Shown here piece by piece: positions 28,801-54,420 of a stretch of DNA of 64,000 nt; positions within the stretch are counted from its first letter, which is position 1; each line of letters opens with the position of its first letter. Under the pieces are notes generated by a model. The model was not told the DNA's origin and searched no databases. It saw only the letters and a list, made by a program, of their open reading frames with translations. The stretch lies in assembly GCA_905178155.1 (NCBI GenBank), contig CAJINV010000007.1, forward strand, positions 3,490,265 to 3,554,264, read 5' to 3'. The position numbers and the translations under genes were made by a program. Source of the stretch: Amoebophrya sp. A120 (lineage: Eukaryota; Protista; Dinoflagellata).

Positions 28801-31800
28801 AAAGCGGTTGCTCTACGACACATTGCAGAGGTATCCACAGAAAAAAACCCATCCACATCCAATTTGTCATGCAAAAAACGTATCAAGTCATGTGTTTGTC
28901 ATGCAAAAAATGAATGTGGATGGGTGTTTTTTCCTGCATAAGAGGAGGCTGTTGGATTCGAAAAAATCCCACAAGTCTGCGGAACAGGAACTGAGAGAAC
29001 TGCACCATATTCTGGACACGACGAAAACAGCCGTCGTTGGGGGGAAGGTATTTTGAAATTTGTACTTCATCTTCGCACTCAATATTTTGTATCGGTTCAA
29101 CATCGCTTTTGGTTTTATTGACGTGAGTGACCTAGTAACCGAATGAAGCGCTCGCCCTGTTCATTTCAAAAAACTCTATGTATAAATATGTACGAAGCGA
29201 CTACTTAAAATAAGGTCACCGTCGAGCGCGGCACTTCTTCCTCTTCCACCTACCGCGACGTGTGCTCGCCTGTCATGGCGGATCGTGACGATGAGCTGGC
29301 GGCCGCGGAGAAGGGGCCGGCAAACGCAAACAAAACTGTGAAAGCTTTGATATGGCGTTCTCAACTGTTACATTCTCAAGTGTTACATGGATTTGTCATG
29401 CAAGAATGGGAGAAGTGAAAGGGGGGAGGTTGCATCTGTAGCATTACAAATTCCGAACAGATTTGGGCGCTGTTTAGCCATTCGCACATTTGTCATGCGA
29501 AGCAGCTTGATCGTGTGGATCTTGATGATCATTTTGCATGACAAATCATGTAACAGTTGAGAATGTAACGTTTGAGAACGCCATACTTGAAGCGGTTACC
29601 ACTGCCGGAGAAATTCTGTCCTGTGATTCTGGATGCGAAGGGGATGGACGCTGGTGGTACTTGGTTCTTTGGTGATGTCAATGGGATGTTGCTGTGTGTA
29701 TTATGGTATGCGCTTTTGTTTTCTCGGGCTGGTAAAAATATTGTCAAGTTCATTGTTTATGGCTCACTAGTACCTCGGCGTCCCGTAATATCCTCCCATT
29801 GCCTTTGCCATAGCCATGGTCGGACGATGAATGCTCCGAAAAAAAACAGGTATTTCAGTCCCGCCCCACGACCCAGCTGCACCACAACACTCTTCCTCGT
29901 CTACCGCAGCGTCATCCGAAGCACCACAAGTCGTGGTCTCCCCAGAGCTAACCGCGACCCTGACGGAGCACTACAGGAATTTGGCAGTCCACGGCACCGG
30001 GCCGGTTTTTGAAGATCCAAACATTCTCGTTTCCGTCGCGAGTATCGAGCCGGATAACATCATATCAACGGGAAACAATTTTCCGTTCCCGTACACGTAC
30101 GGTGCAAATGCTGTTATTTCTGCATGACAAACTTTTCCTTGAATTCTCTTCCGCATGACAAGTCGCTTCTTCTAAGTTCTTGGTGAAATTTTTGATGCAT
30201 TCTGCACATGTGCGGGAAATTTGTATTGCATACATCACCTTCCACGTGCTGAACAAGGGCAACATGCCGGCGGATGTGCTGGATTTCGAGCTCGCGCTAG
30301 TCGGGAGTAGTGGAAACAGGGTTTTGCTGGCGCAGAAAGAGGCCGAGGAGAAGAGCGCGAGCAGACAATACGGGTCCTTGTCCCCTTCCAAGCGTTCCCG
30401 GTCGCCGGCGAGAATTACAAATAGTTCGAATCGGCCAGGGGATCAAATGGATAATTCCTACGAGGATTTGTCTGGATTCTTGAAGCACAGCAAGCCGGTG
30501 AAAGGCGTTTTGATGACCGCGAAGACGGAGCCCAAGGAGATACAAGCAGCCAGCACATCAAAATCCCCGTCTTCGAGTCGGAATCTCGATACAACAAAAC
30601 CCTTCTGGTCCGGCAGACAGTCCCAGTCGGTTCCGAAAACGGTGCAACGAACCGGGCTCGGGCAGCTACCAGGCGAGCGGCACCGGGCGACAGCGTTGCG
30701 CTTGCCCAGCATTTGGCCGAAAAACGCGCAAACCTGCGAAGTGCGGTTGATGAACTATAATCAGCAAGGAATAGACGTGTCAGAAGGCGGGAATTCACAT
30801 GCAGCAGGACAAGCAACGGAGCAGGCCGGGGGTAAAAACAGCAGCTCCTCCTCGTCCAGCACTTCCCACCCGACAACTTCAGCAGCCAACAACAACACCC
30901 TGAACCTCCTCGATTCGATGCTGTACGAGGACGCGCCAATTCTAGAACTCTGGTACAGTTCCGGTTCCTCGGAAAACCTGACAAACTACTTCGCGATCCG
31001 TTTCCCCCTCCACGCCATTGTCCGGAAGTGCAATCTATGCATTGCAAAAGTACTATCGCACTAGAGTGGAAATGGAATGATAAATTTGCGCAAGTAGAAG
31101 AAATAAAGTCGAATTTGTCACGCTGATTAAACTGGATAAAAGATTATATTGTCATGCATGGCTGCATAATTGCTCCTTCTGCAAGTGCGATAGTACTTTT
31201 GCAGATGATACAATCTGCGACCGTTGTCTCTGATAAACCACGCCGCCTTCTTCGAGCGTTGGATGCAGAAGGAATTCCTGGAGAACGAAGTTTGTTTCGT
31301 CTCCAGGGCGAGGAAGGTGTTCTCGAAAGACAAAAATGGAATGCTGCATTTTCTTAAATGCTGTCAATTGGGGGACAGGTTACGGGCGTTGCCGCACTTG
31401 CAGTCGGACGGGGAAGTGGTTGCGACGAACAAGCCAACCTCGAGCGAAAGTAGCAGAAGTCAGTTGCCACGAGCTACTGCTGCCTCCTACAAGCTTCTCC
31501 TAGCCGCCGTCGTCCGACGGGCGACCGTCTCTCCGGAGGTTTTAGTGCAGGCAGAGATCGTGGACCAGAATGTGTTTGTCACGGTTCGGTCCACGCAAAT
31601 TGCGGTGTCACGAGCAATGAGCGCAGCTTTGGTGGACGTTTTAGCGGATGAAGGTTCAGTCAACGCCGGCGTTGCGGTCGCGGGGCAGGAAATGGTAATC
31701 GCGACCGAGAAGCAAAATGCCGCTGCAGCAACGTCTAGTTCTCCGAATCGCAGAAGTAAAGCAAACCAGCACAACATCCAACAAGGCCCCATTCCGGGCC

Positions 31801-32153
31801 GGCAGCCACCGCCTTCCGCGACCGAGATCAAGGAGAAGGAAGAAGCGGAGCAACTTCTGAAGAAGAAAGAGACTTATCTGTTTGACGCAGAGAAGTTGGA
31901 AGACGCTTTTGCACTCGAACCCACACCCACACTGGAGAAGTTGACGAAGGTCAGCGAGGCGAATCATGGGCAGGAACCGCTGCCGGCTTTCTACAACGAA
32001 AATGGCGAGTTGGAAAATAACGGGAAAAGCTTAGAGGAAATCCGGTCGAAGTTCACGCGGACCCGGTGCGAAACGCTTTTGGAGCAGATTAAGAGGCGGC
32101 AGCGGAGCTACGTGATCGACAAACTCACAGGGACCGGGGGGATGCAGTTTTGA
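25826..32153 (+). CDS. Large 8-exon protein: Pro/Gly-rich N-terminus, coiled coil, and a C-terminal alpha-adaptin appendage (ear)-like domain
   Basis: Exons 25826-26704, 26843-28831, 28946-29047, 29215-29350, 29591-29656, 29850-30062, 30238-31035 and 31216-32153 all join in phase. HYRNLAVHGTGPVFEDPNILV, ITFHVLNKG and RFPL..LRPLSLINHAAFFERW resemble AP-2 alpha ear motifs (NGVLFEN, FYGNK, KLP..FFQP..FFQRW). Confidence 0.65.
28832..28940. mobile_element. Introner, family A (109 bp, TSD AGAGG)
   Basis: TATCCACAGAAAAAAACCCATCCACAT with a degenerate right TIR. AGAGG at 28827-28831 and 28941-28945. Can be placed as GT-AG (28831-28944). The 114 nt are in frame. Confidence 0.9.
29351..29585. mobile_element. 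Introner, family F (235 bp, about 52-bp TIR, TSD TTTGA/CTTGA)
   Basis: TATGGCGTTCTCAACTGTTACATTCTCAAG... pairs with ...GTTGAGAATGTAACGTTTGAGAACGCCATA. Removal gives VKAL|KRLPL. Confidence 0.9.
30063..30232. mobile_element. Introner with degenerate TIR (170 bp, TSD CATCA)
   Basis: TAT...ATA ends with CATCA at 30058-30062 and 30233-30237. Removal gives EPDNI|TFHVLNK. Confidence 0.75.
31036..31210. mobile_element. Introner, family E (175 bp, TSD CAATC)
   Basis: Perfect 20-bp inverted-repeat core TGCAAAAGTACTATCGCACT. Removal gives RKCN|LRPLSL. Confidence 0.9.
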
Positions 32154-32917
32154 GCGAGCTGCACTAGGGCCGGGCTTTGCCCGTCTGTTTTTTCTGGCAC
32201 CCAGGGGCCAGCACATCAACACACTCGCAGCACGGACCCTACTTACTCGAGTTGCCTCGTCTGGGAGAGTCCTCGGGCTCCGTTAAATTTAGGATTGACA
32301 GAGCTTTCATGTTTACACTAAAGACTACTTCTTACTTCCACACTGCGCACAGAAAACCATTCGAGCAAGGTTGCGCTCATCGAGAGACAAAAGTATGTTG
32401 GAGCCTGAGCCAAGCCTTTCTACGCATTACAGGCATGCTGAAGATGAAATTCAGTCGTGAGGATGTTAGATGTCGGATCAGAAAGTTGCTTGATTGCGGT
32501 GCAGCCTGTTAAGCTTAGCGAGCTGCATACTTTTTACGTCCGAAACAAAGGTCGAGCACTTTGTTCCGCTTCGAACATAGATCGGCGATCAAGGACCGAT
32601 CACGATCTTCATTACCATGTGGCTTTTGAGTATGCAGACAATCAGGATGAGATTCTTGATTCGACGAACAATTCATTGGCTTGCCCACTCTCGAATATGC
32701 GATTGGTATGCTGTGCCTGTGGCTTCTCTTTCCAAGAAGGTTTCTTTAAGAAATGACTTTAACACGTGATTATAAAGCTTCTTGACGCGACTACGGCACT
32801 AATGCCAGCAGCTTTTGCTTTGTCGGAGTTTGTTCGTTAGATTTACTTGTTATTAAAGTTCAGACACTAAGACTAAATCTAGAACTACGGAAGGCCCCGC
32901 TAACTCGTCTGTGGAGG

Positions 32918-35698
32918 ATGAGGTTACGTATGGCTGCGGACGACGGAACCCGCTGTGTCCGAAGTGAGCTCGTGTGGCTCCGAGTATGGTTCTTCTCGTC
33001 GTGCTCCCTGCTGCAGCTTCTAGCAAATTTCGGCGTTTTTAGCCACGCCATCCCTTTCCGCGATTTCTACTGGATCGAAAGTCACGACGCCGCTACGGGG
33101 TATCTGTACGCAAAGACATCGTCTTCAAGCATGGCCACAACGACGCTCTACTCGAACCAGAACAACATGCTGGGGACGTCGTCGTCGACGAGAGAAAACC
33201 CGATCAACAACTGGGTGATAACCCAGACCGGTCCGCTCTCTCACCAGCTCGACTGCGGCGCCCGTGGCTTCGACCTGCGACCAATGTGCTTCTTCCATGA
33301 AGACGAACAGTTCGAACCAACAACGGACCACGCAGGCGGAGACAAGTCGGAAAACATGGACGGCGCTCCTGCTCTTGACAAGAAGCTTGCTGGTGTGCGG
33401 CAAACCGATCCCGAGATTTACTTCCACCACGGGTTGATTCCTGTGAAAGTGGTAAAATTTGAGGACGTCCTGAACGAAGTTTCTGCCTGGGTGAAAAACG
33501 ACACAGAAACGACGGGCAATCAAGACCCGGTCATTCTCGACATGTCCCATTTCGTCAGCCGTACTGCCTCGACGAGGAGCGACGTGCAGGCCAGCTCAGT
33601 CGCTGGAGCTGATCACCTCGCGATGATTGCCGCCGGGAAACAAGAGGATGCAGGACGGGACACGTTGCGCCGTCAGAAAATAATCCCGGGAACGAAACGC
33701 GAACACGATCAGCGCTGCTACGAGGCGGTAAAGGCGCGGGCTGTTGAACTTGGATACCCTTGGTTTGATTCATGTAATTCCAGCATGGTAAACGTAAACG
33801 CGAACTGGCCTGGCCGGCCCGACGCAAAGCCAAAGCAATCCCGCTCAGGAAATGGTGGAGGTGTGAAGAGTCTCGCAGACACAGACGTGACAGATGTTGT
33901 CAAGACGTATGGGAGAATCCTGCTACTTCACGGAGCGGCGTGCGTAGATGGGAATTACGACCCTGGGGTGAAGTGTGAAGATTGGAATTTGCAGGACGTA
34001 CATGCTGAAAATCAGCTAGACAGCACAAGAGAAAAACTGGATGACGCGCAGCGAAAAACGTTCTCGCTGGGATACGATTGCCATACTGACAAGTCGGTGC
34101 CTGAGAGCAGGGTGCGAGTGGACAAAAAACATAGTTCTATCGCAAGAAGAGCCCCCACCGGCCGGGCGTGGGACACGTTCTTTTCTTACTGGGATAAAAC
34201 TGAAAAGAACGTCGATCATAAAGGTCGTTATTCAAGCGACACAGGTGGAGCAGCACGACACCCTCCTGCAAGGTCTGGGTTTCGCATGCTGCAAGCGCAT
34301 TGGCAATACGATGCGTCGAGTATCTCCTTTGCTGAGGCAAGATTTGGCTTGGATGCCTCCGTCTTGTTTGACAATGAAAAGTCAGGCATGAACTTTATCG
34401 CTGCAGACAGAGTACAGAAGAACGCCGGGGCGAGGAATAAAGCTTGGAATATCGTCGAGGTAAATGATATGGAAGCGTCAGGTTTGAAATCGTCAAAGTT
34501 GAAATACGGTAGGGAAAACTGTCCCCACTACCCCGGTTTTCCCCAAAGACAATTTTTTTTTTTCGATCCAATTGTAAGCAGGGCGGGCCCTTCGCAAGCG
34601 ACCTGCGCCGCGAATGGCCAGACCGAAGCCCGCTCCCCCAGGTGTGTTGCTGGACTCAAAGACACTGCACGCCTTGCCCGGCTTTTTGGGGCGCAAGCAG
34701 CTCGGGGCCCGCGAGGCAGCGCCCTGGGCAAGGCGCCCATGCCAGACCCGCCCCCCGGCCACCTAAGGCTGAACGCAATGCCCCTTGCCGCGGACCTGTC
34801 TTCTCCGCTTGAGGCTGGCCGGCACCGTTTCCCTGAGTGCATGTTCGGACACGCTGGCGAGAAAAAAAACGTATGCTGGGGATTTCGGCCCTAAGCAGCT
34901 ATCTACGCACTTTCGGCCTCCAAAACGAGCACCAGAAACCTCCCGAAAAGGTACGCATGCACGACCCCCAGGGAAACGGTGAGGCCGGAGCCTCAGAAGT
35001 TGGGCGCGGCCAGTGTGGCGGGGCCGCGTTGCAGTAGCCCACGCGCGGATGGGGCCGAAGTAGCTACACACATCCACAAAGCTTGCTGCCCCGTCAGCTC
35101 ATGCGCCGACTTTTGCGCGCCGCTATCCCGCTTGCTCCATTGCATACGTAACAACCTCAGAAAGTATCCGTGAAGAAGATCCACTAGCGGACACTATCCG
35201 GGCGGGCTGTGCGGCCGGTGGCCGTGTTGTTGCGTCAGTTCATAAAAAAATTTTTGATTTGGGGAAAACCGGGGTAGTGGGGACAGTTTTCTCTAACGTA
35301 TGAAATAATTTGTAATGCATAAAATGCATGACCCGAGGCGCGTGTGTTGCAGAGCAGGCAAGTGAGGCCGATTGTAAGCCTGTTTGGGGTTACAGCTCGA
35401 GCTGCTAAAGTAGCATGAGAAAATCGCTCTTCTTTGCCTAAACAGCACGACAAACTGGATTTAAGGGCCGCCAAGATTTGTCATGCGCCACTCGGAAACT
35501 GGGCTTCAGTTGGCATCCATTTTATGCATCACAAATTATTTCAACTTTGAGGATTTCAATCCTGACGTTTCCATAAATGACGTTTGCCTGGATAAAGGAC
35601 AACTTGCAAAGGTTGTGAGGACGTTGAATCAGGACGCTGAGGATCGTGAAAGAACGAACGAGAGCTCGTCAATCGACATGGAAGAAGTTCACATGTAG
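32918..35698 (+). CDS. PI-PLC X-domain-containing protein, probably secreted
   Basis: Motifs SHDAATGY, TQ..LSHQLDCGARGFDLRP, FHHG and VILDMSH, with a hydrophobic N-terminus. Exons 32918-34467 and 35581-35698 give WNIVEVND|VCLDKGQLAKVVRTLN. Confidence 0.85.
34468..35575. mobile_element. Introner, family G (307 bp core, TSD AATGA), carrying a nested element
   Basis: TATGGAAGCGTCAGGTTTGAAATC ... GATTTCAATCCTGACGTTTCCATA. AATGA at 34463-34467 and 35576-35580. Confidence 0.88.
34505..35300. mobile_element. Non-autonomous TIR DNA transposon (796 bp, TSD TGAAA)
   Basis: 43-bp TIR TACG(G/T)TAG(G/A)GAAAACTGTCCCCACTACCCCGGTTTTCCCCAAA with 2 mismatches. TGAAA at 34500-34504 and 35301-35305. GC-rich interior. 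Confidence 0.92.
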
Positions 35699-36594
35699 AA
35701 GTAAGCGAACTGTTACAGCTCCTGATTCGCATGTTCTCACCAGGCACACACTTGTGCAGTGGCGTGATTTTATTTGAATTGTGCCGCAATTATAACACTA
35801 AAGTGTCAAGCTTGACATTTGTGTCAATTAGGTCATTGACGATGAGCGCACGCATTACAATTTCAGTCAGTGTTCTTGTTCTCTATCTCTACCAAAGGAC
35901 GTGGCCGAGCCGTTCGGTAAAGTAGGAGGTGGGCACCGAAAGATTGGGCTCCCGTTGAGCAACAACCAGGCAGCACTCGGTATTATTCTATTTTCCTTCT
36001 AGTTCATGCTCATGGACGAATCGTCAACATGCTGGAAATTATAAATATGATTATGATCATATCAAATGGAAATGACTGTGGATCCCTATCTAGGTCGGTG
36101 GGAGATCAGATGTGGCAAATGAATATCCAGACGGAACAAGAATCGGTAAGGACAACTGATCGACTGCGCAGAAATTTACGATTATGCTCGAGAATGATCC
36201 ACAGTACCAGCGTTAGAGATCAAACCCCATCTTCATAATTCCACCGCGACATCAGCACCGTTGATTTTTACAGTTGGAAGATTTATTCGTATACTATTTG
36301 CCATTGAGGACCACTTTCACGACGAACGCAGCATTCAGTCGCTTCGTTCCTTCAATCCCTTGTAGTTCCTGTGCTCATCGACTTACTTCCACACCGACTT
36401 GATTTATTGTCACGACTTTGAGGTGGCTTGCGCGCGGTTATTTTCACGTAAGTACACGCAACGTTAGCGCATTTCTCTTTCTGTATTAAGTATTCTGCTT
36501 AAGCTTATTTCTCTCGTCTACTCGACTCGTAATTTTTCCTTGCTGTTCACTTCTAGCTTGTCGAAAAATCCCTTTAAGTAGGTTCATTTCCAAA

Positions 36595-38244
36595 ATGCAA
36601 CGTCGCTCTTGTTCGCTCGGGCCGTTCGGCTCAAAAACTGCAGTCCGTTTGGTGTCTTTAAGCCAGATTTTCTCTTTGGTCTGCCAACTTGTCGATGCCA
36701 GTGCGGCGGGGGCTACGGCAACACAGCCACAAAGCTGCATTGGACGTTTCTGCAGCAAACTTGCGGGTCGTAACAGCCGGAACCGAGGTTCGGGTGCAGT
36801 CCCACTTCTGGCTCCTGCAACTTCTGTCGACCCGAGTTCTCCTCCACGCTCAAGTTCGTCTGAACGTGAATTCAGTGCAGACTCTGCTCCTCGGAGCGCG
36901 GCAGTATATACGATGCAGCCTCAGCGGCTGCGTCAGGAGCGGTGTGATCCGTCGAAATTTCGTTTTACAGCTTTGCCTGAGGAGTTGCAATTGAAAAGTC
37001 TTGAGTGCCTCCAGGATGGAATCACGGATGAAGATCCCGTGCGCAGCTTCCGGCACAACCCGGCATCTGTAACTTTCCGCAAGAACCCCGGGCTGAAGGC
37101 GTTACGCAACCTCCTGCAGGATGTGGAAGGGCCCGCAAGAAATTGGTGGTCCAATTGTCCGCCAGGAGGACAAGCTTCGGAGCCGTTTCCTGAAACGCTT
37201 GTAGCACAGAGTGAGCTGTTGCAAGCTCGTGTCCGAAACATCAGTGCAGTACAGCAGGCGGTGCGAGCGCGAGCCGAAGGACGAGATGGAGGTTACCCTG
37301 TCGGAAAATGGTTCCAGGACCAGTTGGAGCGTATTGCGGGCTTAGAACGAGGCAGTTTGTTTTCGGACGTGGCGCCTGCGCGCAAAGGCCTCCTCGAGTC
37401 TATTCTTGTCGCTGTGGAAACGAAACTTGGCTCCGCGGTCCGCAAGGCTGAACAGATCCGAAACGGGTTTGATGACGGTGAGGCGGAGGCCGGACATGCA
37501 GAGCAAATATTTGAGTATGAAGATAATGACGGGCAAGGCAAATATGAGATATCGATCAGAAACGCCATGCACCTGCCAAATCGTGGGCGCGGCTTTGTTG
37601 TTAGCCTGGAAATTCTGTCGAACGAGTTTAGTGATGACGTCATGCGAATTATCCTCCAGAAAAGCGTGCCCCACGCCCCAAAGCCAAGATGGAACATCAA
37701 TCTGCTACATACGCAAATGGAGAAGGTTTTGCTGTTGCGCATTACAACATTGGGCCTCCTCCAGCGTAGTGGTGATTGGCTACTGAAGTCGCGTCGCAAG
37801 ACCTTGATCATCTGACCCTAATTAACAAAGCCTGACAAATCCCCAGATGCTGGCATTAGAGACTGTCGTTATGGCGGGGTTCTTGCGCATGAGAAACATT
37901 GTGCGTCGTGGCATGCAGTAGATGTGCTTGACAAATGTTGGGTGGGGACGTTTTTACACAGGATGCAAATGCTCAGCCACTGGTGGTACGACCGCACTAG
38001 TGATGATTGGGGACGAAATCTTCATTGGGTTCCCCTTCGCCTAGCTGAAAACGAAGCGCAGACGCTCCGATTCCCCGTGGTCAGCCCGCTCGTTATTAGA
38101 CGCCCACATGTGCCACGGCCGGGAAACCCAAACGGGGACCTGTATTTTGGAGTGAAATTCGATCAAGGCGACGAAACCGGGAACGGCCGCTGGGGAGTCA
38201 GTATTTTCTTCGTCCCCGACCGCACGCGCGACGAAAACTCCTAA
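36595..38244 (+). CDS. Hypothetical protein with a signal-like N-terminus and an F-box-like motif
   Basis: Exons 36595-37649 and 37971-38244 join in frame (DVMR|MLSHWW). FTALPEELQLKSLECL resembles an F-box start. Confidence 0.6.
37650..37965. mobile_element. Degenerate introner, family C2 (316 bp, TSD CGAAT/CAAAT)
   Basis: TATCCTCCAGAAAAGCGTGCCCCA ... TGGGGACGTTTTTACACAGGATG. The right end resembles that of 62784-63062. Confidence 0.7.
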
Positions 38245-40236
38245 GGAGAAAGCGGAGGCGCGCAATAAAACTCCATGCTACGTCCTCGAATTGGTGTCGA
38301 AGATGCTTTCGAGCCTTTTTTTTTGTATGAAAAATTGTAGTGATCTACTCAGGCTACAGTGACCTACTCAGACTTCCTTTTTTGATTTTACATTGCAATA
38401 TAAGAAATTGCAGAAGTAGATCTGGCTTGATTTCCTTGATCAAGCTGTTGAAACACGGGGCGGGATGAAAATAAAAGTACTATATTTCTGCTCTGCTTTC
38501 GAAGGAGCATTCTGCTAGGGCGCGTCAAACCCTTAACTCTAGAGCCGGCCCCTAGATGAATCAGTATTTACCGAATTGAAGAAAGGACTAACCCGTGTTC
38601 GTCGTCCATGATAAGGAAGTTTTCAAGAACGCTGCCTGGATTTCTTGTAATTACGCCTCCGCTAGGAAGTACTACGCAAGAGCAGTCCTATGTAAGTTTT
38701 TACCCCAGTGCCGCGGATATCCACTATTTTAATTTCTAGAGTAGCTTTCGAATTCGGAGTTGCAGACGAGATTAACGGCATCTTGTTCCACTAGTAGGGA
38801 AAGGGAACGAGAGTGGACGAGGAAGTGCCCTTGGTTTTTCTGAAGCAGAAGCACGACTTATTGGTGGAAAACTAGACATTCACTTGTAGAAAGGTAGACA
38901 GTTCCCTGACAGTATCTCGCTCACCTAGCACATTTTTTTGACTTTCTTGAAGCAGCCAGGCAATCTACTGCCAGTCCCATCATGGACTGTCCGCGCCTTC
39001 CATTTTTATGGAGTGCTTGAAGTACTTCGACCATGAGCTGACAAACCTCAATAACTACCCTGCGTGGACATGCATCATTATATTGGACCCACGAAATTTT
39101 ATGAGTACACGTCTGACGCCCACACCGTGGCGCAGGAGTGCCGCGATAGCGCCGGCGGTCGCCACCGTATCAGGAGGCGGGCCACACGCACGCACCGGCG
39201 ACGGCTGAAATAAAAAATTGGGTTCTTTTACTTGAACAACCAATCGGTACATATTTGTCCTACTGGTTCTACTTGCGTGGTCGTGGAATTTGGCGCGGAA
39301 ATCATATGTAGTGTAGGCGGTCTTGTTCTTCGGCATTGCAACTGCAAGAGCGCACCAGGTCCATCACGTTCTTTCTCTTTGGTGCGCGCAATGCATGGTC
39401 GTCGCGCCGATCGGTACTTAACTTCCACTTTTGCCCGACGAACCTGAACGAGGTATGAGCTGCTGATTATGACCGTTCTCGTCTCGGTGGATCCCGAACC
39501 CACTTTGTGCGAGGGTCGATCATCGAAGATATTAAATTTGGATCGATCAGCTGGCAGTCTTGATGCTTGCTGCGAGCATCAGAGTTCATGGCTCATGAGT
39601 TAAAAGGAAGTCGCAGTGCAGCTAGCTTTTGATGTTCTTTCTTTTTCGTCGCATGAGATGCCTCCGTGTTTTTTTCCCCGGAAAGTAGAACAAATGGAAA
39701 TTATTAATGGGCCACGAGGGTTGAACGATAGCGAACGACTTGCTTGGCCATGGCCAGTTTATGAGGTTTTTTGGAACTCATTAAAATGTAGAGGAAGGAG
39801 GACTTTTTTTGGACTCAACAGCAAAGATTCTTTTCGTTTTCTACTTTCATGCTTAAAACTACTCTACTAAAAGATAAGACTCTCTGTTTTTGCGACCGGA
39901 AGATCAACAACAAGACAACGCACCAGCAGAAAGCAGAAGCTCCGCTGCAGCGTATTGTCAGCAAACGGGATGGACACCAACAACACCACCTACCAAGAAT
40001 TATTGATGGCACCCTCGTTGACAGATGAGCCCCACGAGGGACCACGGTGACCCCTCTTCAGCGTGAAAGCAAACCCCTCCTAAGGAGACAGAGAAGAGTG
40101 GCCGCCTCCCTTGCGCGGCGACGCGGATCCTGCTCTTGACCTTGCGGCTCTACAACGTCAACTGCGTCGCTCTGCCGCACGACGAACCGCGCACACAGTC
40201 AAGAAGCAACAACCTCCAAAATCGGCCACCAAAAGG

Positions 40237-43200: not shown

Positions 43201-46200
43201 AACCGCCCGGGCGTTTTCCGCATGAGATCTGGCACCGTCTTGGCAGGCTTTGGCCATGATCTGGAACCGGCTTGGCGCTGATCTGGCACCGGCTTGGCCA
43301 TGATGCATGTGGCACCCACGCACCGGCTTGGCAGGTTTTGGCCATGATCTGGCACCGGCTTGGCCGCGATCTGGCACCGGCTTGGCTATGATCTGGCACC
43401 GGCCCGGCCATGATCTGGCACCGGCTTGGCAGGCTTTGGCCATGTTTTGGCACCGGCTTGGCCGCGACCTGGCACCGGCTTGGCCACGACCTGGCACCGC
43501 CTCGGCCATGATTTGGCACCGGCATGGCCATGATCTGGCACCGGCGGGCTTGGCGGGCTTTGGTCATGATCTGGCAACGGCCGGCGGGCTTGGCCACGAC
43601 CGGGCACCGGCAGGCTTGGCAATGATCTGGCACCGGCTTGGCCATGATCTGGCATCGGCATGGCCACAGTCTGGCACCGGCTTGGCCACGACCTTCCTGG
43701 CACCGGGCGGCTTGGCCATGATCCGGAACCGGCCGGCTGGCAGGCTTGGCCGTGATCTGGCACCGGCTTGGCAGCCTCTGGCCATGATCTGGCGCCAGCC
43801 TTGGCACGGCCTGCCCTGGCACCGGCTTGGCCATCATCTGGCATCGGCTTGGGCACGACCCGGCACCGGCTGGCAGGCTTGGCCATAATCTGGCACCGGC
43901 TTGGCAGGCTTGGCCATGATCTGGCACCGGCTTGGCAGGCTTTGGCCATGATCTGGCACCGGCTTGGCCACGACCTGGCACCGGCTTGGCCATGATCTGG
44001 CACCGGCTTGGCTATGACCTGGCACCGGCTCGGCAGGTTTTGGCCATGATCTGGCACCGGCTTGGCCATGATCTGGCACCAGCTTGGCCATGATCTGGCA
44101 CCGGCTTGGCCACGACCTGGCATCGGCTTGGTCATGATCTGGCAACGGCTTGGCCATGATCTGGCAACGGCTGGCAGGCTTGGCCATGCATGATCTGGCA
44201 CCGGCTTGGCAGGTTTCCTCTGGCCACGACCTGGCGCCGGCTCGTGTTTCGAGGTTAGTTGCGTTTCGCACGTTGCTGCCCCGCCTCGAGGCTTCGCTGC
44301 TTCGGGGCTTCGCTGCTTCGGGGCTTCGTTGCTTCGGGGCTCCGCTGCTTCGAGGCTTCGCTGCTTCGGGGCTTCGCTGCTTCGGGGCCTCGAGGCTTCG
44401 CTGCTTCGAGGCTTCGAGGCTCTGCGGCTTCGAGGCTCTGCGGCCTCGAGGCTTCGCTGCTCCGAGGCTTCGCTGCTTCGAGGCTTCGCTGCTCCGAGGC
44501 TTCGCTGCTTCGAGGTTTCGCTGCTTCGAGGTTTCGCTGCTTCGAGGCTTTGCTGCTTCGAGGCTTTGCCGCTTCGAGGCTTCGCTGCTTCGGGACTTCG
44601 CTGCTTCGGGGCTTCGCTGCTTCGGGGCTTCGAGGCTTCGCTGCTTGTTCGAGGCTTCGTTGCTTGTTCGAGGATTCGCCGCTTGTTCGAGGATTCGCTG
44701 CTTGTTCGAGGCTTCGCAGCTTGTTCGAGGCTTCGCTGCTTGTTTGAGGCTTCGCTGCTTGTTCGAGGCTTCGTTGCTTGTTCGAGGCTTCGCTGCTTGT
44801 TCGAGGCTTCGCTGCTTCGAGGCTTCGCTGCTTCGAGGCTTCGCTGCTTCGAGGCTTCGCTGCTTCGAGGTTTCGCTGCTTCGAGGCTTCGCTGCTTCGA
44901 GGTTTCGCTGCTTCGAGGTTTCGCCGGCCGCTTCGAGGCTTCGCCGGCCGCTTCGAGGCTTCGCCGCTTCGGGGCTTCGCTGCTTCGAGGGTTCGCTGCT
45001 TCGAGGGTTCGCTGCTCCGGGGCTTCGCTGCTTTGGGGCTTCGGGGCTTCGAGGCTTCGCCGCTTGTTCGAGGCTTCGCCGCTTGTTCGAGGCTTCGCTG
45101 CTTGTTCGAGGATTCGCTGCCTGTTCGAGGATTCGCTGCTTGTTCGAGGCTGCGCTGCTTCGAGGCTGCGCTGCTTCGAGGCTTCGCCGCTTCGAGGCTT
45201 CGCTGCTTCGAGGCTTCGCCGCTTCGAGGCTTCGCTGCTTCGAGGCTTGGCTGCTTCGAGGCTTCGCTGCTTCGAGGCTGCGCTGCTTCGAGGCTGCGCT
45301 GCTTCGGGGCTGCGCTGCTTCGAGGCTTTGCTGCTTCGCCGCTTCGAGGCTTCGCCGCTTCGCCGCTCCGAAGCTTCGCTGCTTCGAGGTTTCGCTGCTT
45401 CGCGGTTTCGCCGCTTCGAGGCTTCGCTGCGTGCTTCGAGGCTTCGCGGCTTCGCTGCTTCCTTCGGCGTTTCGAGGCCTCATCGTTTCGAGGCTTCGCC
45501 GCTTAGAAGCTTGGGCACTTTGTCTGCATTTCGTTTTTGTTGTTTTTCGTTTCTATTCTTTGTTTTTGTTTTTTGTTTTCATTCTTTGTTTTCATTCTTT
45601 GTTTCCATTCTTTGTTTCCGTTTTTCGTTTCTATTCTTTGTTTTCGTTTTTCGTTTCCATTGTTTGTTTTCATTTTTCGTTTCCATTCTTTGTTTTCGTT
45701 TTTCGTTTCCATTCTTTGTTTTCGTTTTTCGTTTCCATTCTTTGTTTCCATTCTTTGTTTTCGTTTTTCGTTTCCATTCTTTGTTTTTGTTTTTCGTTTC
45801 TATTGTTTGTTTTTATTGCGGGATACTATTAAATAATGGGTTTTCTGACTTATAACTAGTCATGGTAGAGATTTGTTGTTTTGCATTGTCGTGGGCGGCT
45901 CTTTTAATTTTATGCATGAAGTTGAAGCCAGAGACAGATGCTAGATCAAGGACATGTTGATACTACCTTCCAGATGAACATAATTATACCTGCAGGAGGT
46001 CCTGCCCCCGTGGTTTCCGACATTTTTGTGAATGCGAAGAGGTACGAAAAGTTTCTGGACAAACTCCCGAAGCCCGAGTGCTTCGGCACAGTGCTGCTGG
46101 CGGATCATGTGCAAACCCGTGAGGAAAAGCAACAGTACGCGGATGACTTCACTGCTCGGTACAAGAAAGCGTCCGAGGAGGAGGCGCGGATCGTCGACCA

Positions 46201-47973
46201 CAAAAATGTCAAACCCCAGTCGAATATGCATTGCAAAAGTATCGTGCTAGTATGAATTGCAATACAAGTTGGCTCAGCATTACAACTCAAATTTGTAATG
46301 TGGATTGCCCTCAACATCTAGATTTGTAATGCAGTATCGCAATCAGTACGAGCGCGGTACTTTTGCACAGGATATCGGAAATCTACCAGCGCGATGAGCT
46401 GGAACTCCGCCGGGTCCAATTGGCGCCCCAGGTTGCCGTGTCACGAGAATGCACAAGCACCTCCTCCCTCTTCATTTCATGAAGGGCATAAGGATAAGAA
46501 TGTTAAGCAGCAACACAAGTGCTGGCATAAATGCAGCTTTTGCATGACAATAAATTCGTGACCGAATCTAGTGCTGTTTCGGCTTCCGAAGTCTGTCATG
46601 CAAGAAGTGCGAAAGAGAAAAAGGCGGTTCTGACCCTAGATCTCCTGCGTCCGAAGCTGCTTGCGGCGACGGTGCAGAGCTTTTTGATGTGGCGCAGTCG
46701 GGTAATATGCGTGACAAATGAGGGGGAGAGGGAGTTGTACTAGTTGTGCATTGTCATACGCTTGTAAAGTTTTGGATATCGGCGGCAACCAGGTCGGGAA
46801 CGTTGTCCATCTTCCCTGCTACGACATTTACCACGACCGCTACTCGGCCCATTACGCCGGGTTGAAGCTGGAGCTCATCAAGGCGGTTGCGGACAGTCGC
46901 TGCGTGGCGGTGTCCGGCACGTTCGCGCAGGTCCTGGAGCAGCAGCTGGCTCTGTCGGGGACCCCGCCTCCCACAGCTGCTGGTAGTGGTGATAATAAAA
47001 ACTACGTGTTCACGTCGGAGATGGGGAGTGCATCGGCAGGAGGCGCTACTTCGAGTTCTTCTTCTTCTACAATCAACAGTTCTACTCCTACAACATCAAG
47101 CCGTGTGTTCGCCTGGGAGCCGAATGCGTCCGTTCCCTACGAGTACGCGCGCTACCCGACCATTGTCTTCCAAAACTCCCACAACATCTACCATTGTCCG
47201 GACGACACCAAGAAAAGTAAGTGGGCGGCGGGCGATGCAACAGCGGGCAAAGGAACTACCGAGGTGAATCCACGACCGCCGACCACGAGCAATTATTCCA
47301 AGCGCCTGGAGAACAGTTGCCTCAAGTTCGCTTTCTCCTTCTGCCCGGACAAGGGGCACTTGGTCCACTGGGGCTGGATCGAGTACAACACGCTGCAGAA
47401 GACAGGTTTGAAGGCCAAGGAGGAGTCGAAAAACACAGCGATGTTTCTTGGACACGAAAACCCACAAAAGCAGGAGGCGCAGTTTGGCGTCTTCCAAGGA
47501 GAGGTGCAGCTTGCGAACATTGCGCTGCCGGAGGAAGAACAACAGCTGCAGGACCAACAGCGGCTGGAGCCGCGACAGCACCGGCAGTCGAGGGGACGTG
47601 TATGGATGGTTACTTCTTAAAGGCATCGCACACGACCTCGTTCGTAGTAGTTGCAAGTATGCATTAATACTAAAGGTTTATTTGCGAAGATGAAAAGTTG
47701 GAAATCCGCCTGACAAATGTGCAAAGGTTTTTGATGTGCTGCAGTCGCCGGGTATGCAGGGCAAATTCCGTATATCCCACTGAGTAACTTTGTCATGCAA
47801 TTTTTAGTGGTGCGTGCGAATGCGATACTTTTGTATATGCATAATGTGGTCACCGAGACGATTACGCGGTCCTGGCTGGCGGCGGCGAGGCCGGAGGTCG
47901 TCGTTATCACGAACTGTTGGAGACGATGTTGGGAATATCCTGGGAACAAGTTGTAATATCGTACAACTGGTAG
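40237..47973 (+). CDS. Hypothetical multi-exon protein whose first intron is 5.6 kb
   Basis: Phase-1 GT-AG intron 40424-45995 gives QQG|GPAPVV. Later exons are 45996-46222, 46378-46438, 46761-47600 and 47849-47973, separated by introners. The start codon is uncertain. Confidence 0.5.
40607..41870 (+). repeat. 22-bp tandem satellite GGCCATGATCTGGCACCGGCTT, left part
   Basis: Dozens of adjacent, partly diverged copies, more degenerate at the 5' end. Confidence 0.95.
41871..43225. mobile_element. 1355-bp TIR element inserted in the satellite (6-bp TSD GATCTG)
   Basis: About 67-bp imperfect TIR TCATGCGGAAA..CCCGGGCGG..CTAATTTTTCCGG..TTCAAAAA. GATCTG at 41865-41870 and 43226-43231. Removal restores a satellite unit. 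Confidence 0.85.
42560..42850 (+). repeat. Internal TTTTAGAG-cored repeats (about 11-15 bp period)
   Basis: Repeated GCATTTTAGAGG-like units, with inverted TTCTAAAA-like copies around 42470-42525. Confidence 0.8.
43226..44240 (+). repeat. 22-bp tandem satellite, right part
   Basis: Same unit and orientation as 40607-41870. Confidence 0.95.
44281..45500 (+). repeat. 16-bp satellite GCTTCGCTGCTTCGAG, with 19-bp GCTTGTTCGAG variants
   Basis: Tandem array read directly. Confidence 0.95.
45525..45815 (+). repeat. T-rich satellite (about 26 bp, TTCGTTTCCATTCTTTGTTTTCGTTT)
   Basis: Tandem array read directly, with strong strand asymmetry. Confidence 0.9.
46225..46374. mobile_element. Introner, family E (150 bp, TSD TCGAA/TCGGA)
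   Basis: TATGCATTGCAAAAGTATCGTGC ... GCGCGGTACTTTTGCACAGGATA. Removal gives KPQS|EIYQR. An in-frame GT-AG alternative (46219-46370) also exists. Confidence 0.8.
46442..46758. mobile_element. Degenerate introner, family D (317 bp)
   Basis: The right end AAATGAGGGGGAGAGGGAGTTGT..TTGTGCATTGTCATA matches family D. The left TIR and TSD are decayed. Removal restores PQVA|ACKVL. Confidence 0.65.
47601..47843. mobile_element. Degenerate introner, family E (243 bp, TSD ACGTG/ATGTG)
   Basis: Right end GCGATACTTTTGTATATGCATA, left end decayed. Removal extends the frame to a stop at 47971-47973. Confidence 0.55.
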
Positions 47974-50159: not shown

Positions 50160-50970
50160 AGCAGGAATGGAATTTCGTAGAAGAGGGCAGGAATCATGTT
50201 GCGAGCGGGGGGATTTTGTAAGGGAGCGATCGAACTATAGTTTTTGCTATAATGATCGCTGAACGAAAATCTACTTCACATGGTGCCAGTGGCGATTATC
50301 TATCAGGCTTTTTTGATGATGTTCCTCCAAAGAAAGTGGCTCCCTGGTACGCTGTACAACAAGCCGTAGCTTCCACTGAAGACAAAAGATGAAGCGACAT
50401 TTCGAAAAATTACGTAGTACTTGTTCATATCAAGTCGAGGACAAGTTGTTTCTGTAATACTACTATACGACTTTGATGGAACAAGTCCGATGGAATCGCC
50501 TGGGAAGGTCAGGCTCGTTCTTTAAGGTGTTTTTGCCTCATCACTCTTTTACGACGAAACTAAACGGTTGCAGCCGACAACAGTGCCCGTTTTCACGAGG
50601 ACACACCGGTAGTCAGTCCCAAAATGTGAAGATGTTCGCAGATTAGAGCTGAGTACTACAAAACGTTATCTTATATATGTTCTTAAAGATCAACTGGTGG
50701 TGATGGCGCGTTCATAAAGCAGTGCTCTGGATCATGTTGATGCAAATGCAATACAACACGTCCCGCCGCCCAAGTCTCATCATCTGTCGTCAGTCAACGT
50801 GGAGATGAACATCTTTGTCCTTCATGACTCTCAACTAAGGTCGTCAGTGTTAGTGTTGGACACAGGTCGTCGTGACAAGCGCTAAATCGCGTCTACTGGA
50901 AGAGGCGATGATCATCTCTTAGATAAAATGATGTTCGCTTTGCCACCTGCTTAAATTTTGAACGTACAGA

Positions 50971-52896
50971 ATGGAGAGCGAGAGAACATGCTGGGTGACC
51001 GTCGGGCAATGCGGAAATCAAATCGGCAGGGAGTTGGCCAAGCTGCAACTACAGGTAAGCCAATCCAATACCGCAAATGTTGCATGCGCGCCATCCGCTG
51101 TCTCCAACCGGGTGGCGGTCGACTCCGAAGCGAAGGTTCTATTGCGAGGAACAGGAGCGACCACGACTACAGGAACAAGCGCAGCGAAACATCCAAGCAG
51201 GACTACGGCGTCCAACGTGATTCACGAGCACTCGGGTCGGGGAAGTAACTGGGCGCTGGGCTACACCAGTGGAATGTATGGCGGCTGGAGTTCATCTACT
51301 TGTGCTTCTTTTTCTAGCGCCACCACAGCACCACCTTCCACTTCCGCGGTCCCAATCAGAAACAACTTCAAGCAGCTGAGCACCGGTTCGGTGAACTTAG
51401 TCGATGCCGACAGTGGCGCAGATCGAGGTGTCGTCGCGGATCGGCAGCGTGGAATAATGAGAAACAAGATCATGAACAGCAGCAGCGCGCACCCACAGCA
51501 CACCAGCAGACGCCGGGGAGCCAGCAGCCCGACTCCGACAGGAACAAATTTGGGCTTGCTTGATGATTCCAACCAAGTGATAGGTGAATGCGCGGCAACC
51601 AAGAACGAGCAACATCAAAGCGCAACTGACCTGACCGAGAGTCTACTGTTCCAAGAGCCTTACCTCGTGCACGGCGTGAAGGCAAAAGTGCGGCAAGTTC
51701 TGGAAAAATCGGACAAGCGAATCGAGAACCTAGTCCTCCTTCATTCCGTCGCGGGCGGAACGGGGAGCGGTCTGGGTTCGAGATTGCTGGAGGAGTTCGC
51801 AGCAGGAGTAGATCATGGTAGTGTTTTCTCGCAAGCAGCCGATGAGCAAGATTTGAACCTGGTATCCTGCGCAGTCCTTCCGATATGGTCGCAGCATTCC
51901 GAAACCTGTCTGCAGGCGTATAATGCGTGTTTCTCCGCGGCTTGGATGCAGGACTTTTGCAACGGAAATTTACTCTTCGAAAACGAGTTTCAGCTGGAGA
52001 AGATCCTGCAGCAACAGGGACATCAATTGTCTTCGCAGTTTGGGGGCAAGACGATGACAAATCACTCTTCCACTTCGTGTTCAACCAGCACCAGCGGCGC
52101 TTACACGCTCGTTAACCAGCAGTTCGCGGAGACCATCAACAGCCTGAACTTCACCGATTTTCTGACCTACGTGACCCCCATGCCGTCGCACCACTTTGCG
52201 CACGCGTTTTCTTACCGATTAGACCCCTTGATTGCGAAAACCAATGCGGAGTTGGAGCATCGGAACTTCTTGAAGAAGCGAGTTCTCCCCCCACCGCTGG
52301 AAGTGGCGAGAAAACACTTGCTGCTACAAGTGCACGCGACGGTGTTTAACGAAAGTGTCACGCTCCTCCAGCCGGAGTGGTTTTCGACCACGTGCGACCC
52401 GGTGCCCTGGAATCGGAGCTTTGTGCTAGAGCAGAAGCGGAGTGGGGGTCCGGGTTCTGCAGCTGGTACAGCTCCGACGAGAAGTACAACCAGGAGCACC
52501 ACGAATGCAAATGCAAATTCTACTACACCAGCCGCGACAAGAGGACAGGCAAAGCAGCTGTCCTCAACAACAGCATCCACCTACCCCGATGTGACTCTTG
52601 CCTTGAATTGGAGTAGAACTGGGGATCTGTTCCGGCATTTCTTGGACCGTGCGAAGAAGATGTACAGGGGTAGAGCGTTTTTCCACGCGTTTGAGCAGTA
52701 CGGTTTTGGTCATTGTGAATTCGAAAACATGTTTGAAACGGTGGAAGAACTCGTAGCCAATTACTCACCAGAAAGGCTCTTATATCGACACAGAAAAGCC
52801 GCGAGGGCTTTTTTTACACCTGGAGCTCGTCCTGGCTTTTCAACAGGAAGCTCTGGTCAACTGGAGCTATTCTCGGTGGTGTGTTGTTTTTCGTAA
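50971..52896 (+). CDS. Divergent tubulin of the zeta(eta)/delta class
   Basis: WVTVGQCGNQIG, VAVDSEAKV, GRGSNWALGY, HSVAGGTGSGLG, ETCLQAYNA..WMQ, LLFEN and RAFFHAFEQYG, interrupted by long low-complexity insertions. Confidence 0.85.
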   Translation: MESERTCWVTVGQCGNQIGRELAKLQLQVSQSNTANVACAPSAVSNRVAVDSEAKVLLRGTGATTTTGTSAAKHPSRTTASNVIHEHSGRGSNWALGYTSGMYGGWSSSTCASFSSATTAPPSTSAVPIRNNFKQLSTGSVNLVDADSGADRGVVADRQRGIMRNKIMNSSSAHPQHTSRRRGASSPTPTGTNLGLLDDSNQVIGECAATKNEQHQSATDLTESLLFQEPYLVHGVKAKVRQVLEKSDKRIENLVLLHSVAGGTGSGLGSRLLEEFAAGVDHGSVFSQAADEQDLNLVSCAVLPIWSQHSETCLQAYNACFSAAWMQDFCNGNLLFENEFQLEKILQQQGHQLSSQFGGKTMTNHSSTSCSTSTSGAYTLVNQQFAETINSLNFTDFLTYVTPMPSHHFAHAFSYRLDPLIAKTNAELEHRNFLKKRVLPPPLEVARKHLLLQVHATVFNESVTLLQPEWFSTTCDPVPWNRSFVLEQKRSGGPGSAAGTAPTRSTTRSTTNANANSTTPAATRGQAKQLSSTTASTYPDVTLALNWSRTGDLFRHFLDRAKKMYRGRAFFHAFEQYGFGHCEFENMFETVEELVANYSPERLLYRHRKAARAFFTPGARPGFSTGSSGQLELFSVVCCFS

Positions 52897-53146
52897 ATGA
52901 ATTATGTAGTCGTACGATCACGATTAATACGGGAACCGCACCATGGGTCTTTTTTTTCGCACTGATCTTCCCCTTCTGTTTCTGAGATGTTACTCTTACT
53001 CCTGTCTTTAAAAGGCTTCTCGAGGTATTTTTCGTAAGCATTTTTCGGATTGCAGGCGCTGAATGAGCAAGGTAGAGCACCCAGAATAGAGAGTCCTCGT
53101 CAAGTATTTTCTCCGCCTGCTCTCGCTTCTCGTCCTCGCACCCAAA

Positions 53147-54420
53147 ATGCGGGGACTACGTCGCTGCCCTAACGTTCTTGCGCTGTCACCTCTCGTCGCG
53201 GCTTGCTTCGCTACAACTTCACGACTTTTCTCACTTTTCGCTGTGCCACTGTCTGCCCAATTATCTGGGACACGACCTGTAGGCAGCGTAGTACAACAAG
53301 AACCTCCGCCAGCAATGAACACTGCGCAAGAACTGAGCAACGGCCTCGCCAACTGGAAGCCCGGCGCGGGGAGTTGGCAGGAACTGGGTGACCTCTTCAC
53401 GAACAGCGGCACGGGCATTGGCATTGTTCTCGGCCTGGGCCCAGATGCGAATTTCGCGAGGCAATTTTTGCACATGTGGACCAACGGGGTGTTGTACCTG
53501 TGCGACCCGTTTATCCACATCTTCAACGGCTACGACGATCCGGAATATAACGTGGACGACAAGACGCACCAGATCAATTTCGAAAACATCCGCGTGACCC
53601 TGATGCAAACCCCTACCATCCAAGGCCGATACTCGATGGTCCGGGAGTTCAGCTTCAGCTTCTACCGCCTTTGGCTGAAGCAAGACCCGCAGTACGACTT
53701 CGGGCAAATACCGCCGAGGTTCATTTTCGTGGACAACAATCCGAGCAAAGACGCGGTCTTGCGGGACATGCACGACTGGTGGGAGTTACTTCTACCGGGC
53801 GGCGTCATGGCGGGCGCCAGGCCCGAGCATCCGGGAGTGTTTCACGCGGTTGAGAGCTTTGCGAAGTTGCACAATCTGGAACCCTATCAACTGCAAAAGT
53901 GTCTGGGTCTGGAAACTTGTAATGCTGCGTTGGGAATAGTAAATGCTCTGCAATGCACAGTTAAGCATGATGAGAAATATCTGCGGTTTTTTGTGTTGCG
54001 TTTTTCGCATGACTTGCATGACAGGCAAAAGGGTCTCTTCTTGGACACGCTTCACAAACTTTTTGGTCATGCCAGGCAAGCATGACAAATCTTCCAGACC
54101 CAGACATTTTTGCATTTGATAAACCCCTGCTGGTCACGGACGAGCAGACCTCGATCGGGTTCGGCTGGTTTCTATCCACAGAAAAAAACCCATCCACATC
54201 CATTTTTTGCATGACAAACACATGACTTGATACGTGTTTTGCATGACAAATTGGATGTGGATGGGTTTTTTTCTGTGGATAGTTTCTCATCAAACCGAAC
54301 GACGACGCGACAAACGAAGAATACATGCGGAAGGCGGAGGAGATGAAGCGCGTCGCCGACGAAGCGCGAGAAAAGGAGGCAAGGAAAATGCAAGAAATAA
54401 CCTCGAAAGTTGAGTTGTGA
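53147..54420 (+). CDS. Class I SAM-dependent methyltransferase-like protein (Methyltransf_24 type), secretory pathway
   Basis: GIVLGLG, LYLCDPF and FIFVD..AVLRDMHDWWELLLPGGVMAG. Exons 53147-53884, 54127-54172 and 54287-54420. Hydrophobic N-terminus; the spliced C-terminus is KVEL*. Confidence 0.8.
53885..54121. mobile_element. Introner, family B (237 bp, TSD AACCC)
   Basis: 30-bp TIR with 2 mismatches. Removal gives HNLEP|LLVTDE. Confidence 0.92.
54173..54281. mobile_element. Introner, family A (109 bp, TSD GTTTC), inverted relative to the copy at 28832
   Basis: Perfect 30-bp TIR TATCCACAGAAAAAAACCCATCCACATCCA. Removal gives GWF|LIKPN. Confidence 0.95.

Follow-up and report, generated by a model that had tools for sequence, protein, structure and literature searches.

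Oppositely oriented copies of a 109-bp miniature transposon in Amoebophrya genes are likely both removed from mRNA, by way of a terminal hairpin and non-GT-AG splicing

Results

Two inverted copies of one element lie in genes on the same strand

We analyzed a 64,000-nt stretch of the genome of Amoebophrya sp. A120 (GenBank assembly GCA_905178155.1, contig CAJINV010000007.1, positions 3,490,265 to 3,554,264 of the forward strand), which we will call the window. Coordinates below count from its first nucleotide. An earlier note, made from the sequence alone, proposed that the window contains the same 109-bp introner twice, in opposite orientations, within two genes of the + strand. The great majority of the window's long frames without stops are on the + strand, as are both host genes: copy 1 is in a + strand transcript contig, and copy 2 is in a + strand gene for a Methyltransf_24-like protein, whose homologues align across the insertion. 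The two genes, the two copies, and the direct repeats (target-site duplications) that flank them are as follows.

25992..32494, + strand: gene with copy 1, spanned by a single 5296-nt transcript contig (run X6, record 3)
28827..28831: AGAGG, upstream repeat of copy 1
28832..28940, + strand: copy 1, 109 nt, TAT...ATA; left arm of type X, right arm of type Y' (see below for the arm types)
28941..28945: AGAGG, downstream repeat of copy 1 (perfect, 5 bp)
53147..54420, + strand: Methyltransf_24-like gene with copy 2; inferred exons 53147 (ATG)-53884, 54127-54172, and 54287-54420
54168..54172: GTTTC, upstream repeat of copy 2
54173..54281, - strand: copy 2, 109 nt; both arms of type X
54282..54286: GTTTC, downstream repeat of copy 2 (perfect, 5 bp)

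The outer coordinates of the pair, 28827 and 54286, are the outer edges of the AGAGG and GTTTC repeats. The interior of copy 1 defines what we call orientation A, and it contains TTTGTCATGCAAAA twice, in the same direction, on the + strand. The interior of copy 2 is in orientation B on the + strand.

When the two copies are compared by blastn, they are 97.06% identical over 102 nt (99/102) on the minus strand and 80% identical over 105 nt on the plus strand, so they are mutually inverted. The likeness on the plus strand is due to the terminal inverted repeats (TIRs) only. If 30 nt are trimmed off each end, the 49-nt interiors are identical at 48 of 49 positions on the minus strand, just as the earlier note had it (about one mismatch in roughly 50 nt, in copies of 109 bp each). 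The near-identity of the copies and their perfect 5-bp repeats fit a fairly recent insertion, in keeping with the earlier note's suggestion that the family moved recently.

The TIRs are about 35 nt long. The arms of copy 2 are 35 nt and 97% complementary, and those of copy 1 are 34 nt and 79% complementary. A repeat search of the window paired the two copies with each other as inverted arms, with 94% complementarity. Each copy opens with TATCCACAGAAAAAAACCCATCC and closes with the complement of such an arm. With up to two mismatches, a 13-nt core of the TIR occurs seven times in the window, whereas 100 shuffles gave 1.42 on average; the arms of copies 1 and 2 make up four of these seven. This excludes a chance origin of the core matches. 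The TIRs account for about 60-70 of the 109 nt, so that a change of orientation flips only the interior of about 45 nt. In both orientations, the 5' end (UAUCCACAGAAAAAAA) and the 3' end are identical, with a run of U6-U7 that lies 9-16 nt from the end.

The element has the properties of a miniature inverted-repeat transposable element (MITE): it is 109 nt long with TIRs, it lacks an ORF, and a 5-bp duplication accompanies all 10 copies that we know of (including eight from metagenomes; see below), in 10 different flanks. A search of the window against Rfam gave no match.

The coding context differs between the two copies. Taking 114 nt (the element and one repeat) out of the first gene joins ...LYDTLQR to RLLDSKK... 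in frame. If copy 1 were retained, the frame would stay open for 38 codons, with 0 stops. If copy 2 were retained, there would be three in-frame stops; the earlier note had also seen in-frame stops in this copy. The gene with copy 2 has a weak match to Methyltransf_24 (E 1.7e-4, below the curated cut-off), and it is interrupted by another element, 51 nt upstream of copy 2:

53885..54121: 237-bp TAT...ATA element of another family, with AACCC on both sides and without a GT-AG reading; a predicted intron of the gene with copy 2

Conceptual removal of both elements, each with one repeat, gives a product of 306 amino acids with no internal stop. At the junction left by copy 2 (between GWF and LIKPNDD), this product aligns without gaps to 5/5 homologues. 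The best named homologue comes from Amoebophrya sp. A25, at 80% identity across 68% of the query, and a second one reads ...GPGWFLIKPNDDAANEEY.... The gene's own protein, whether annotated or derived from transcripts, was not found in the protein collection among sequences of 145-464 or 465-2000 amino acids.

Copy 1 and six other elements are precisely removed from RNA

We searched sequencing runs by their words with 26001-36000. Two runs, X1 and X2, are DNA-like and contain 0.94-0.95 of the words. The contig sets X3-X6, guessed to be from RNA, contain 0.72-0.75. X9, X10, and X11 are raw RNA runs with the same species label. We mapped X9, X10, X11, and X6 to 20001-40000, which yielded ten joints. 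The raw runs are sparse and cover only 23973-25429 and 36826-39109 of this region, with none over copy 1. Nine of the ten joints are from X6 contigs and one is from 98 raw X10 reads. At seven of the ten, the missing segment is a TAT...ATA-type element plus 5 nt.

The contig that spans the first gene (X6 record 3) is without eight segments: three plain GT-AG introns (joints 26703>26842, 29044>29212, and 29655>29849), copy 1, and four non-GT-AG TAT...ATA elements. Because the plain GT-AG introns are missing from the same contig, we consider it to be a spliced transcript. Its pieces of 104 + 135 + 69 + 208 nt account for 516 record positions, with nothing inserted at the joints. At copy 1 (joint 28826>28941), exactly 114 nt are skipped, that is, the element and one repeat, with GT..AG at cut +4. 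This supports the earlier note's view that the family is an introner family. In the GT..AG reading, the removed segment is:

28831..28944, + strand: segment removed at copy 1; the cut is ambiguous over 5 positions, from 28827-28940 to 28832-28945

The six other elements whose removal is seen in RNA are:

21793..22114: 322 nt, repeat CGACG, 327 nt removed
29351..29585: 235 nt, repeats TTTGA and CTTGA, 240 nt removed
30063..30232: 170 nt, weak TIRs, repeat CATCA, 175 nt removed
31036..31210: 175 nt, repeat CAATC, 180 nt removed
34468..35575: 1108 nt, repeat AATGA, 1113 nt removed
37650..37965: 316 nt, repeats CGAAT and CAAAT, 321 nt removed (98 raw X10 reads)

None of these six has a GT..AG reading, and all six are precisely removed; copy 1 is the only one of the seven validated elements that has such a reading. 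The element at 29351-29585 shares an internal motif, TTTGTCATGCAA, with the 109-bp family. Given the homologues that align without gaps at the copy 2 junction and the removal of these six elements, we predict that copy 2 is very probably removed in the same way as copy 1.

The removed segment is the element plus five nucleotides

In all seven validated cases, the length removed is that of the element plus 5 nt. A reading in which the intron comprises the element and the downstream repeat (so that the intron begins with TA) is allowed in 7/7 cases. The opposite reading, with the upstream repeat and the element, is excluded in the two cases in which the repeats are one base apart, as it is the upstream variant that remains in the mRNA.

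The earlier note held that one copy is GT-AG compatible and that the other is not, and this is correct. Copy 1 has six 114-nt readings, one of which is GT..AG, and copy 2 has no GT-AG reading (the possibilities are GT..TA, TT..AG, TT..GT, TC..TT, CT..TT, TA..TC, and AT..CT). Since the element starts with T, a GT-AG reading requires the target NNAGG. Copy 1 is GT-AG compatible because the last G of the duplication and the first T of the element form GT, while the AG in the second copy of the duplication serves as the acceptor. Copy 2 and the eight metagenome copies are not in NNAGG targets, which leaves 9/10 copies of the family without GT-AG. The canonical borders of a GT-AG introner are thus a property of copy 1 and not of the family.

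The class is strongly enriched. We scanned the window for TAT/ATA ends, TIRs that match at 11 or more of 14 positions, and a 5-nt repeat with at most one mismatch. This strict scan found 13 elements, as compared to 0-3 (mean 0.65) in 20 shuffles. Copy 1 and three of the validated elements miss the filter, so the true number of elements in the window is higher.

One of the plain GT-AG introns (29044-29212, 167 nt) lies between 5-nt direct repeats (AAGGT), and its short ends have the form ATTTT.../...AAAAT. This intron may itself be an old element, from a different family.

Further copies occur in both orientations

In metagenome contigs, eight loci (L001-L008) match a 26-nt TIR pattern exactly, and they are 84-95% identical to copy 1. 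All of their direct repeats are 5 bp long; seven are perfect and one matches at 4/5 positions.

We assigned the coding strand at each locus with a codon log-odds model that was trained on + strand ORFs of the window. The model ranked the true frame first in 6/6 held-out ORFs; a caveat is that it was trained on the window and applied to metagenome contigs. (We had considered ORF length alone for these calls and rejected it, as it mis-calls copy 1.) Once the element and one repeat are removed, the best ORF that spans the junction has a positive score at 8/8 metagenome loci. The scores are clear for L001, L002, L003, L006, and L007 (20.7-56.4), moderate for L004 (13.5), and weak for L005 and L008 (5-6).

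On the inferred coding strand, orientation A is found in copy 1, L001, L002, L003, L006, and L007, and also, from the weak calls, in L005 and L008. Orientation B is found in copy 2 and L004. The ratio of A to B is 8:2 among the 10 copies (two from the window and eight from metagenomes; p ~0.11, two-sided binomial test) or 6:2 among the confident calls (p ~0.29). Both orientations occur in contexts in which removal restores an ORF, and there is no significant bias.

An alignment of the copies shows two types of arm: X, which is CCACAGAAAAAAACCC, and Y, which is CCAGGAAAAAACACCC. With the interior held as A, the arrangement is X-A-Y' in copy 1 and L005, X-A-X' in copy 2, L004, L006, and L007, and Y-A-X' in L001, L002, L003, and L008. 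We considered whether the right arm of copy 1 reflects decay or an adaptation to canonical splicing. We rejected this, as Y is also present in L005 and, mirrored, in L001-L003 and L008. Apart from a single private change (G-to-C), the right arm of copy 1 is a trait of a subfamily. With Y on the right in two copies and on the left in four, the pattern would fit a flip of the interior between the arms, or the conversion of one arm from the other.

The elements are of a known kind

Farhat et al. 2021 (BMC Biol 19:1, PMC7789003) described the introns of Amoebophrya sp. A25 and A120, and the following draws on passages of that paper. Over 60% of the introns are non-canonical, with no dinucleotide consensus. 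The introner elements have inverted repeats of 8-20 nt at both ends and direct repeats of 3-5 nt at their borders; in A120, the inverted repeats begin with TAT, followed by 7 nt and then by at least 3 A. The families are strain-specific and include identical pairs, and the genes are in unidirectional clusters. Most of the repeated elements of the introner kind are introns with RNA support. The same organization is found in 15% of the canonical introns of A120, which would cover copy 1. Farhat et al. proposed a model in which a hairpin joins the exon ends. They did not find the U1 snRNA in Amoebophrya, and they found nearly all of the spliceosomal proteins.

The 109-bp family (TAT-CCACAGA-AAAAAAA) is an exact fit to the A120 signature, and so are the window's other elements, which begin with TATGGCG, TATCAAC, or TATGCAT, among others. 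Like the published elements, as these passages describe them, ours have TIRs and direct repeats at their borders, are predicted to form a hairpin, and show no fixed splice dinucleotides; they also form near-identical families, lack an internal transposase, and lie in unidirectional gene clusters. There is no structural difference from that description, except that the arms are about 35 nt here and the paper quotes 8-20 nt. This kind of element is already known: it is the Amoebophrya introner element, with the A120-type signature. The orientation pair and the boundary rules are incremental additions. What we add is the pair in opposite orientations within genes on the same strand, the rule that an NNAGG target yields GT-AG, the reading as element plus downstream repeat in 7/7 cases, and the 8:2 count. 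The main-text passages and supplement text of Farhat et al. make no statement that we could find about the orientation of the elements relative to the gene ("orientation" there refers to genes), although the figures could still show it.

The nonconventional introns of euglenids are similar in some respects. According to passages in two papers (PMC12501133, PMC11282704), they have non-GT-AG borders, terminal complementarity of CAG...CTG, and repeats that resemble duplications; an origin from MITEs was suggested, and the mechanism is said to be unknown. Our family likewise has CCACAG...CTGTGG and border repeats. In the code given for Euglena by Nomura et al. 2025 (PMC12501133, as excerpted), the intron is 5'-N3-CDG ... 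CH'G-N5-6 and is followed by an exon that begins with a purine. In Euglena, CAG is at +4 to +6 and CTG lies 5-6 nt before the exon, whereas here CAG is at +7 to +9. No single 114-nt reading of our element satisfies both ends of the code; its 3' half (CTG, 6 nt, G) could fit only if the 5' cut were 11 nt before CAG. The lineage also differs, as ours is alveolate-like and not euglenozoan. We therefore rejected a euglenid or diplonemid origin with euglenid-type introns, given the Amoebophrya homologue and the absence of the N3-CAG spacing.

In Micromonas, Aureococcus, Polarella, and others, spliceosomal introners co-opt the target-site duplication (passages of Gozashti et al. 2022, PMC9860276, and 2025, PMC12130899). 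There, as here, a TIR transposon and its duplication make an intron, with a splice site that derives partly from the duplication (here, in copy 1 only). But those introners are described as spliced at canonical sites, whereas 9/10 of our copies lack GT-AG. The methods of Gozashti et al. 2022 (PMC9860276), in the part we draw on, allowed for insertions in opposite orientations. Finally, the introns of hemistasiid diplonemids (Thakur et al. 2025, PMC12621601) are mostly non-GT-AG, and extensive pairing joins the intron ends, which resembles our elements. They are from another lineage and are shorter, and the passages of that paper on which we draw describe neither a TAT...ATA signature nor a 5-nt repeat.

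A terminal hairpin probably guides removal

Amoebophrya removes tens of thousands of introns that have no splice-site consensus. For the question of how it does so, pairs in opposite orientations and copies whose only difference is the target (with or without GT-AG compatibility) offer natural controls. The window also imposes constraints on any answer: the length is the element plus 5 nt, the upstream variant of the repeat is kept in the mRNA, and the stem is common but not universal.

We think it likely that both of the oppositely oriented MITE copies are removed from mRNA, via a TIR hairpin and non-GT-AG splicing. A non-autonomous TIR transposon has inserted into coding exons, with a 5-bp target-site duplication. 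Under this proposal, the hairpin formed by the TIRs in the transcript would bring both exon ends together, and the element would be cut out along with one duplication by a splicing machinery for which GT-AG is irrelevant. This machinery would be a U1-less spliceosome, as proposed by Farhat et al. 2021, and not another enzyme. As to the central step, in which the hairpin juxtaposes the exon ends and a GT-AG-indifferent machinery cuts, we follow the published model and lean towards it. We infer that the cuts are set by the hairpin and not by linear signals in the arms.

Predicted RNA folds bear on the role of the stem. Copy 2 with its flanks is predicted to form a perfect 31-bp stem from the first U to the last A (dG -73 kcal/mol, z -13.1). 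We folded 16 elements with their flanks, and 12 of the 16 pair 8-12 of their first 12 nt with the mirror positions. (We considered, and rejected, that the exon flanks form a motif resembling a bulge-helix-bulge, as the pairing of the flanks at the base of the stem is inconsistent among the 16.)

Several observations weigh against the hairpin proposal. Copy 1 has a weaker predicted fold (z -3.2, -42.6 kcal/mol), in which none of the terminal 8 nt pairs with its mirror position. Three elements have little or no terminal pairing in their predicted folds (0/12 in copy 1, 0/12 in 30063-30232, and 4/12 in 31036-31210) and yet are removed. As far as these folds go, the terminal stem is usual, yet it appears to be dispensable for removal. 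The "RNA" label of X6 is a guess, and its contigs show that the joined form is present, not how efficiently it is made. The removal of copy 2 is a prediction, made from homologues and from the six other elements. Also, the 8:2 count is compatible with some preference for one orientation, as the sample is too small to speak against a moderate preference.

The earlier note favored recognition of the symmetric TIR stem. This remains plausible, and it is weakened by copy 1 and 30063-30232, which are removed despite pairing 0/12. The note had also reasoned that removal in either orientation argues against a strand-specific polypyrimidine tract or branch point. This does not follow, because the arms provide the same U-run near the 3' end either way. 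More generally, because the arms are symmetric, orientation alone cannot separate models based on the stem from models based on linear signals; it tests only the interior of about 45 nt.

It is possible, but not probable, that a relaxed (U1-less) spliceosome reads linear signals in the arms, so that both copies are removed and the stem is uninvolved. The signals would be the UAU at the 5' end and the U-run 9-16 nt before the 3' end, which would act as a polypyrimidine tract. With inverted repeats for arms, the signals do not differ between orientations, and the arms present the same ends either way. From the A120 signature (TAT, 7 nt, at least 3 A), it follows that each 3' end has at least 3 U close to it. 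Amoebophrya has nearly all of the spliceosomal proteins, and the validated elements with poor terminal pairing (0/12, 4/12) are removed all the same. But there is no consensus dinucleotide at the boundaries at any fixed offset, save for the element's own TA. A constant length of the element plus 5 nt would be hard to measure by linear signals alone, and the strong terminal stems (8-12 of 12 nt) in 12 of the 16 folded elements also speak against this reading.

A more radical variant, which we regard as rather doubtful, is a cut-and-join reaction that does not depend on the spliceosome and is measured by the hairpin, from the transposon's first nucleotide to five past its last. If so, any insertion of this class of transposon would be erased from the mRNA, regardless of its orientation or target, by an RNA-level "undo" that is matched to the 5-bp stagger of the integrase. 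The 8:2 excess of one orientation would then reflect a strand-specific helper motif (UUUGUCAUGCAAA).

Returning to copy 2, we think it improbable that it is a recent insertion that is not removed, whether as a null or hypomorphic allele or as a haplotype in the assembly. It would truncate the methyltransferase-like protein about 44 residues before the normal end. Its perfect TIR and perfect duplication are what a young insertion would have, it carries three in-frame stops, and the gene's own protein is missing from the protein collection. However, 6/6 of the other non-GT-AG elements in the part of the window with RNA coverage are precisely removed, and the same gene has a second such element 51 nt upstream. 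Also, in the lineage's published genomes, RNA supports the majority of such repeated elements as introns, and L004, which is in orientation B as well, lies in a context where removal restores an ORF.

Excision from the DNA in some nuclei, with the "spliced" RNAs being transcripts of emptied sites, is very improbable: the loss of the element and one duplication is just what precise excision leaves, but the same contig is also without plain GT-AG introns, elements with decayed ends or mismatched repeats are still removed, the DNA-like runs X1 and X2 contain 0.94-0.95 of the words from 26001-36000 with the elements included, and cut-and-paste excision normally leaves footprints.

Other features of the window

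A near-palindromic motif of 12-16 nt (TTTGTCATGCAAA and its complement) recurs, in either direction, within TAT...ATA elements from several families that are otherwise unrelated. It may be a subterminal binding site that is common to a superfamily. The sites are:

28863-28878, 28895-28910, 29391-29403, 29532-29546, 30117-30132, and 46538-46550
47789-47800, 54203-54218, 54237-54250, 56553-56567, and 62815-62826

The window also contains a much longer element with the same ends:

58529-61637: 3109-bp TAT...ATA element with 52-nt TIRs (90% complementary), a perfect repeat (GTCTA), and an interior of ~62% GC

This is a candidate for a larger relative of the small elements, without a recognizable transposase: in Pfam, none of eight ORFs searched from within 58529-61637 has a match, and neither does the upstream ORF at 57302-58504.

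The validated intron at 34468-35575 holds two pairs of inverted repeats (34504-34561 with 35244-35301, and 35301-35330 with 35514-35543), which suggests that elements are nested within this element.

A block of tandem arrays runs from 40600 to 45870. It has a GC-rich period of 22 nt (~40.6-44.2 kb), periods of 8, 16, and 19 nt (~44.2-45.5 kb), and a T-rich period of 13 nt (45.49-45.87 kb). The AT skew drops to -0.6 at 44-46 kb.

The raw runs X9 and X10 each contain one transcript at high depth (23973-25429 and 36826-39109). The loose ends of their reads resemble a template-switch oligo and a tagmentation adapter, and poly(A) starts near 25429 and 39109. The reads differ from the window at two positions: at 24265, 788/788 reads have G where the window has A, and a T is inserted after 38377 in 141/146 reads. 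Both discrepancies come from strain differences or from errors in the assembly.

Just upstream of the gene with copy 2, on the + strand, a 644-codon open frame (50962-52896) matches the tubulin/FtsZ GTPase domain (E 2e-15).

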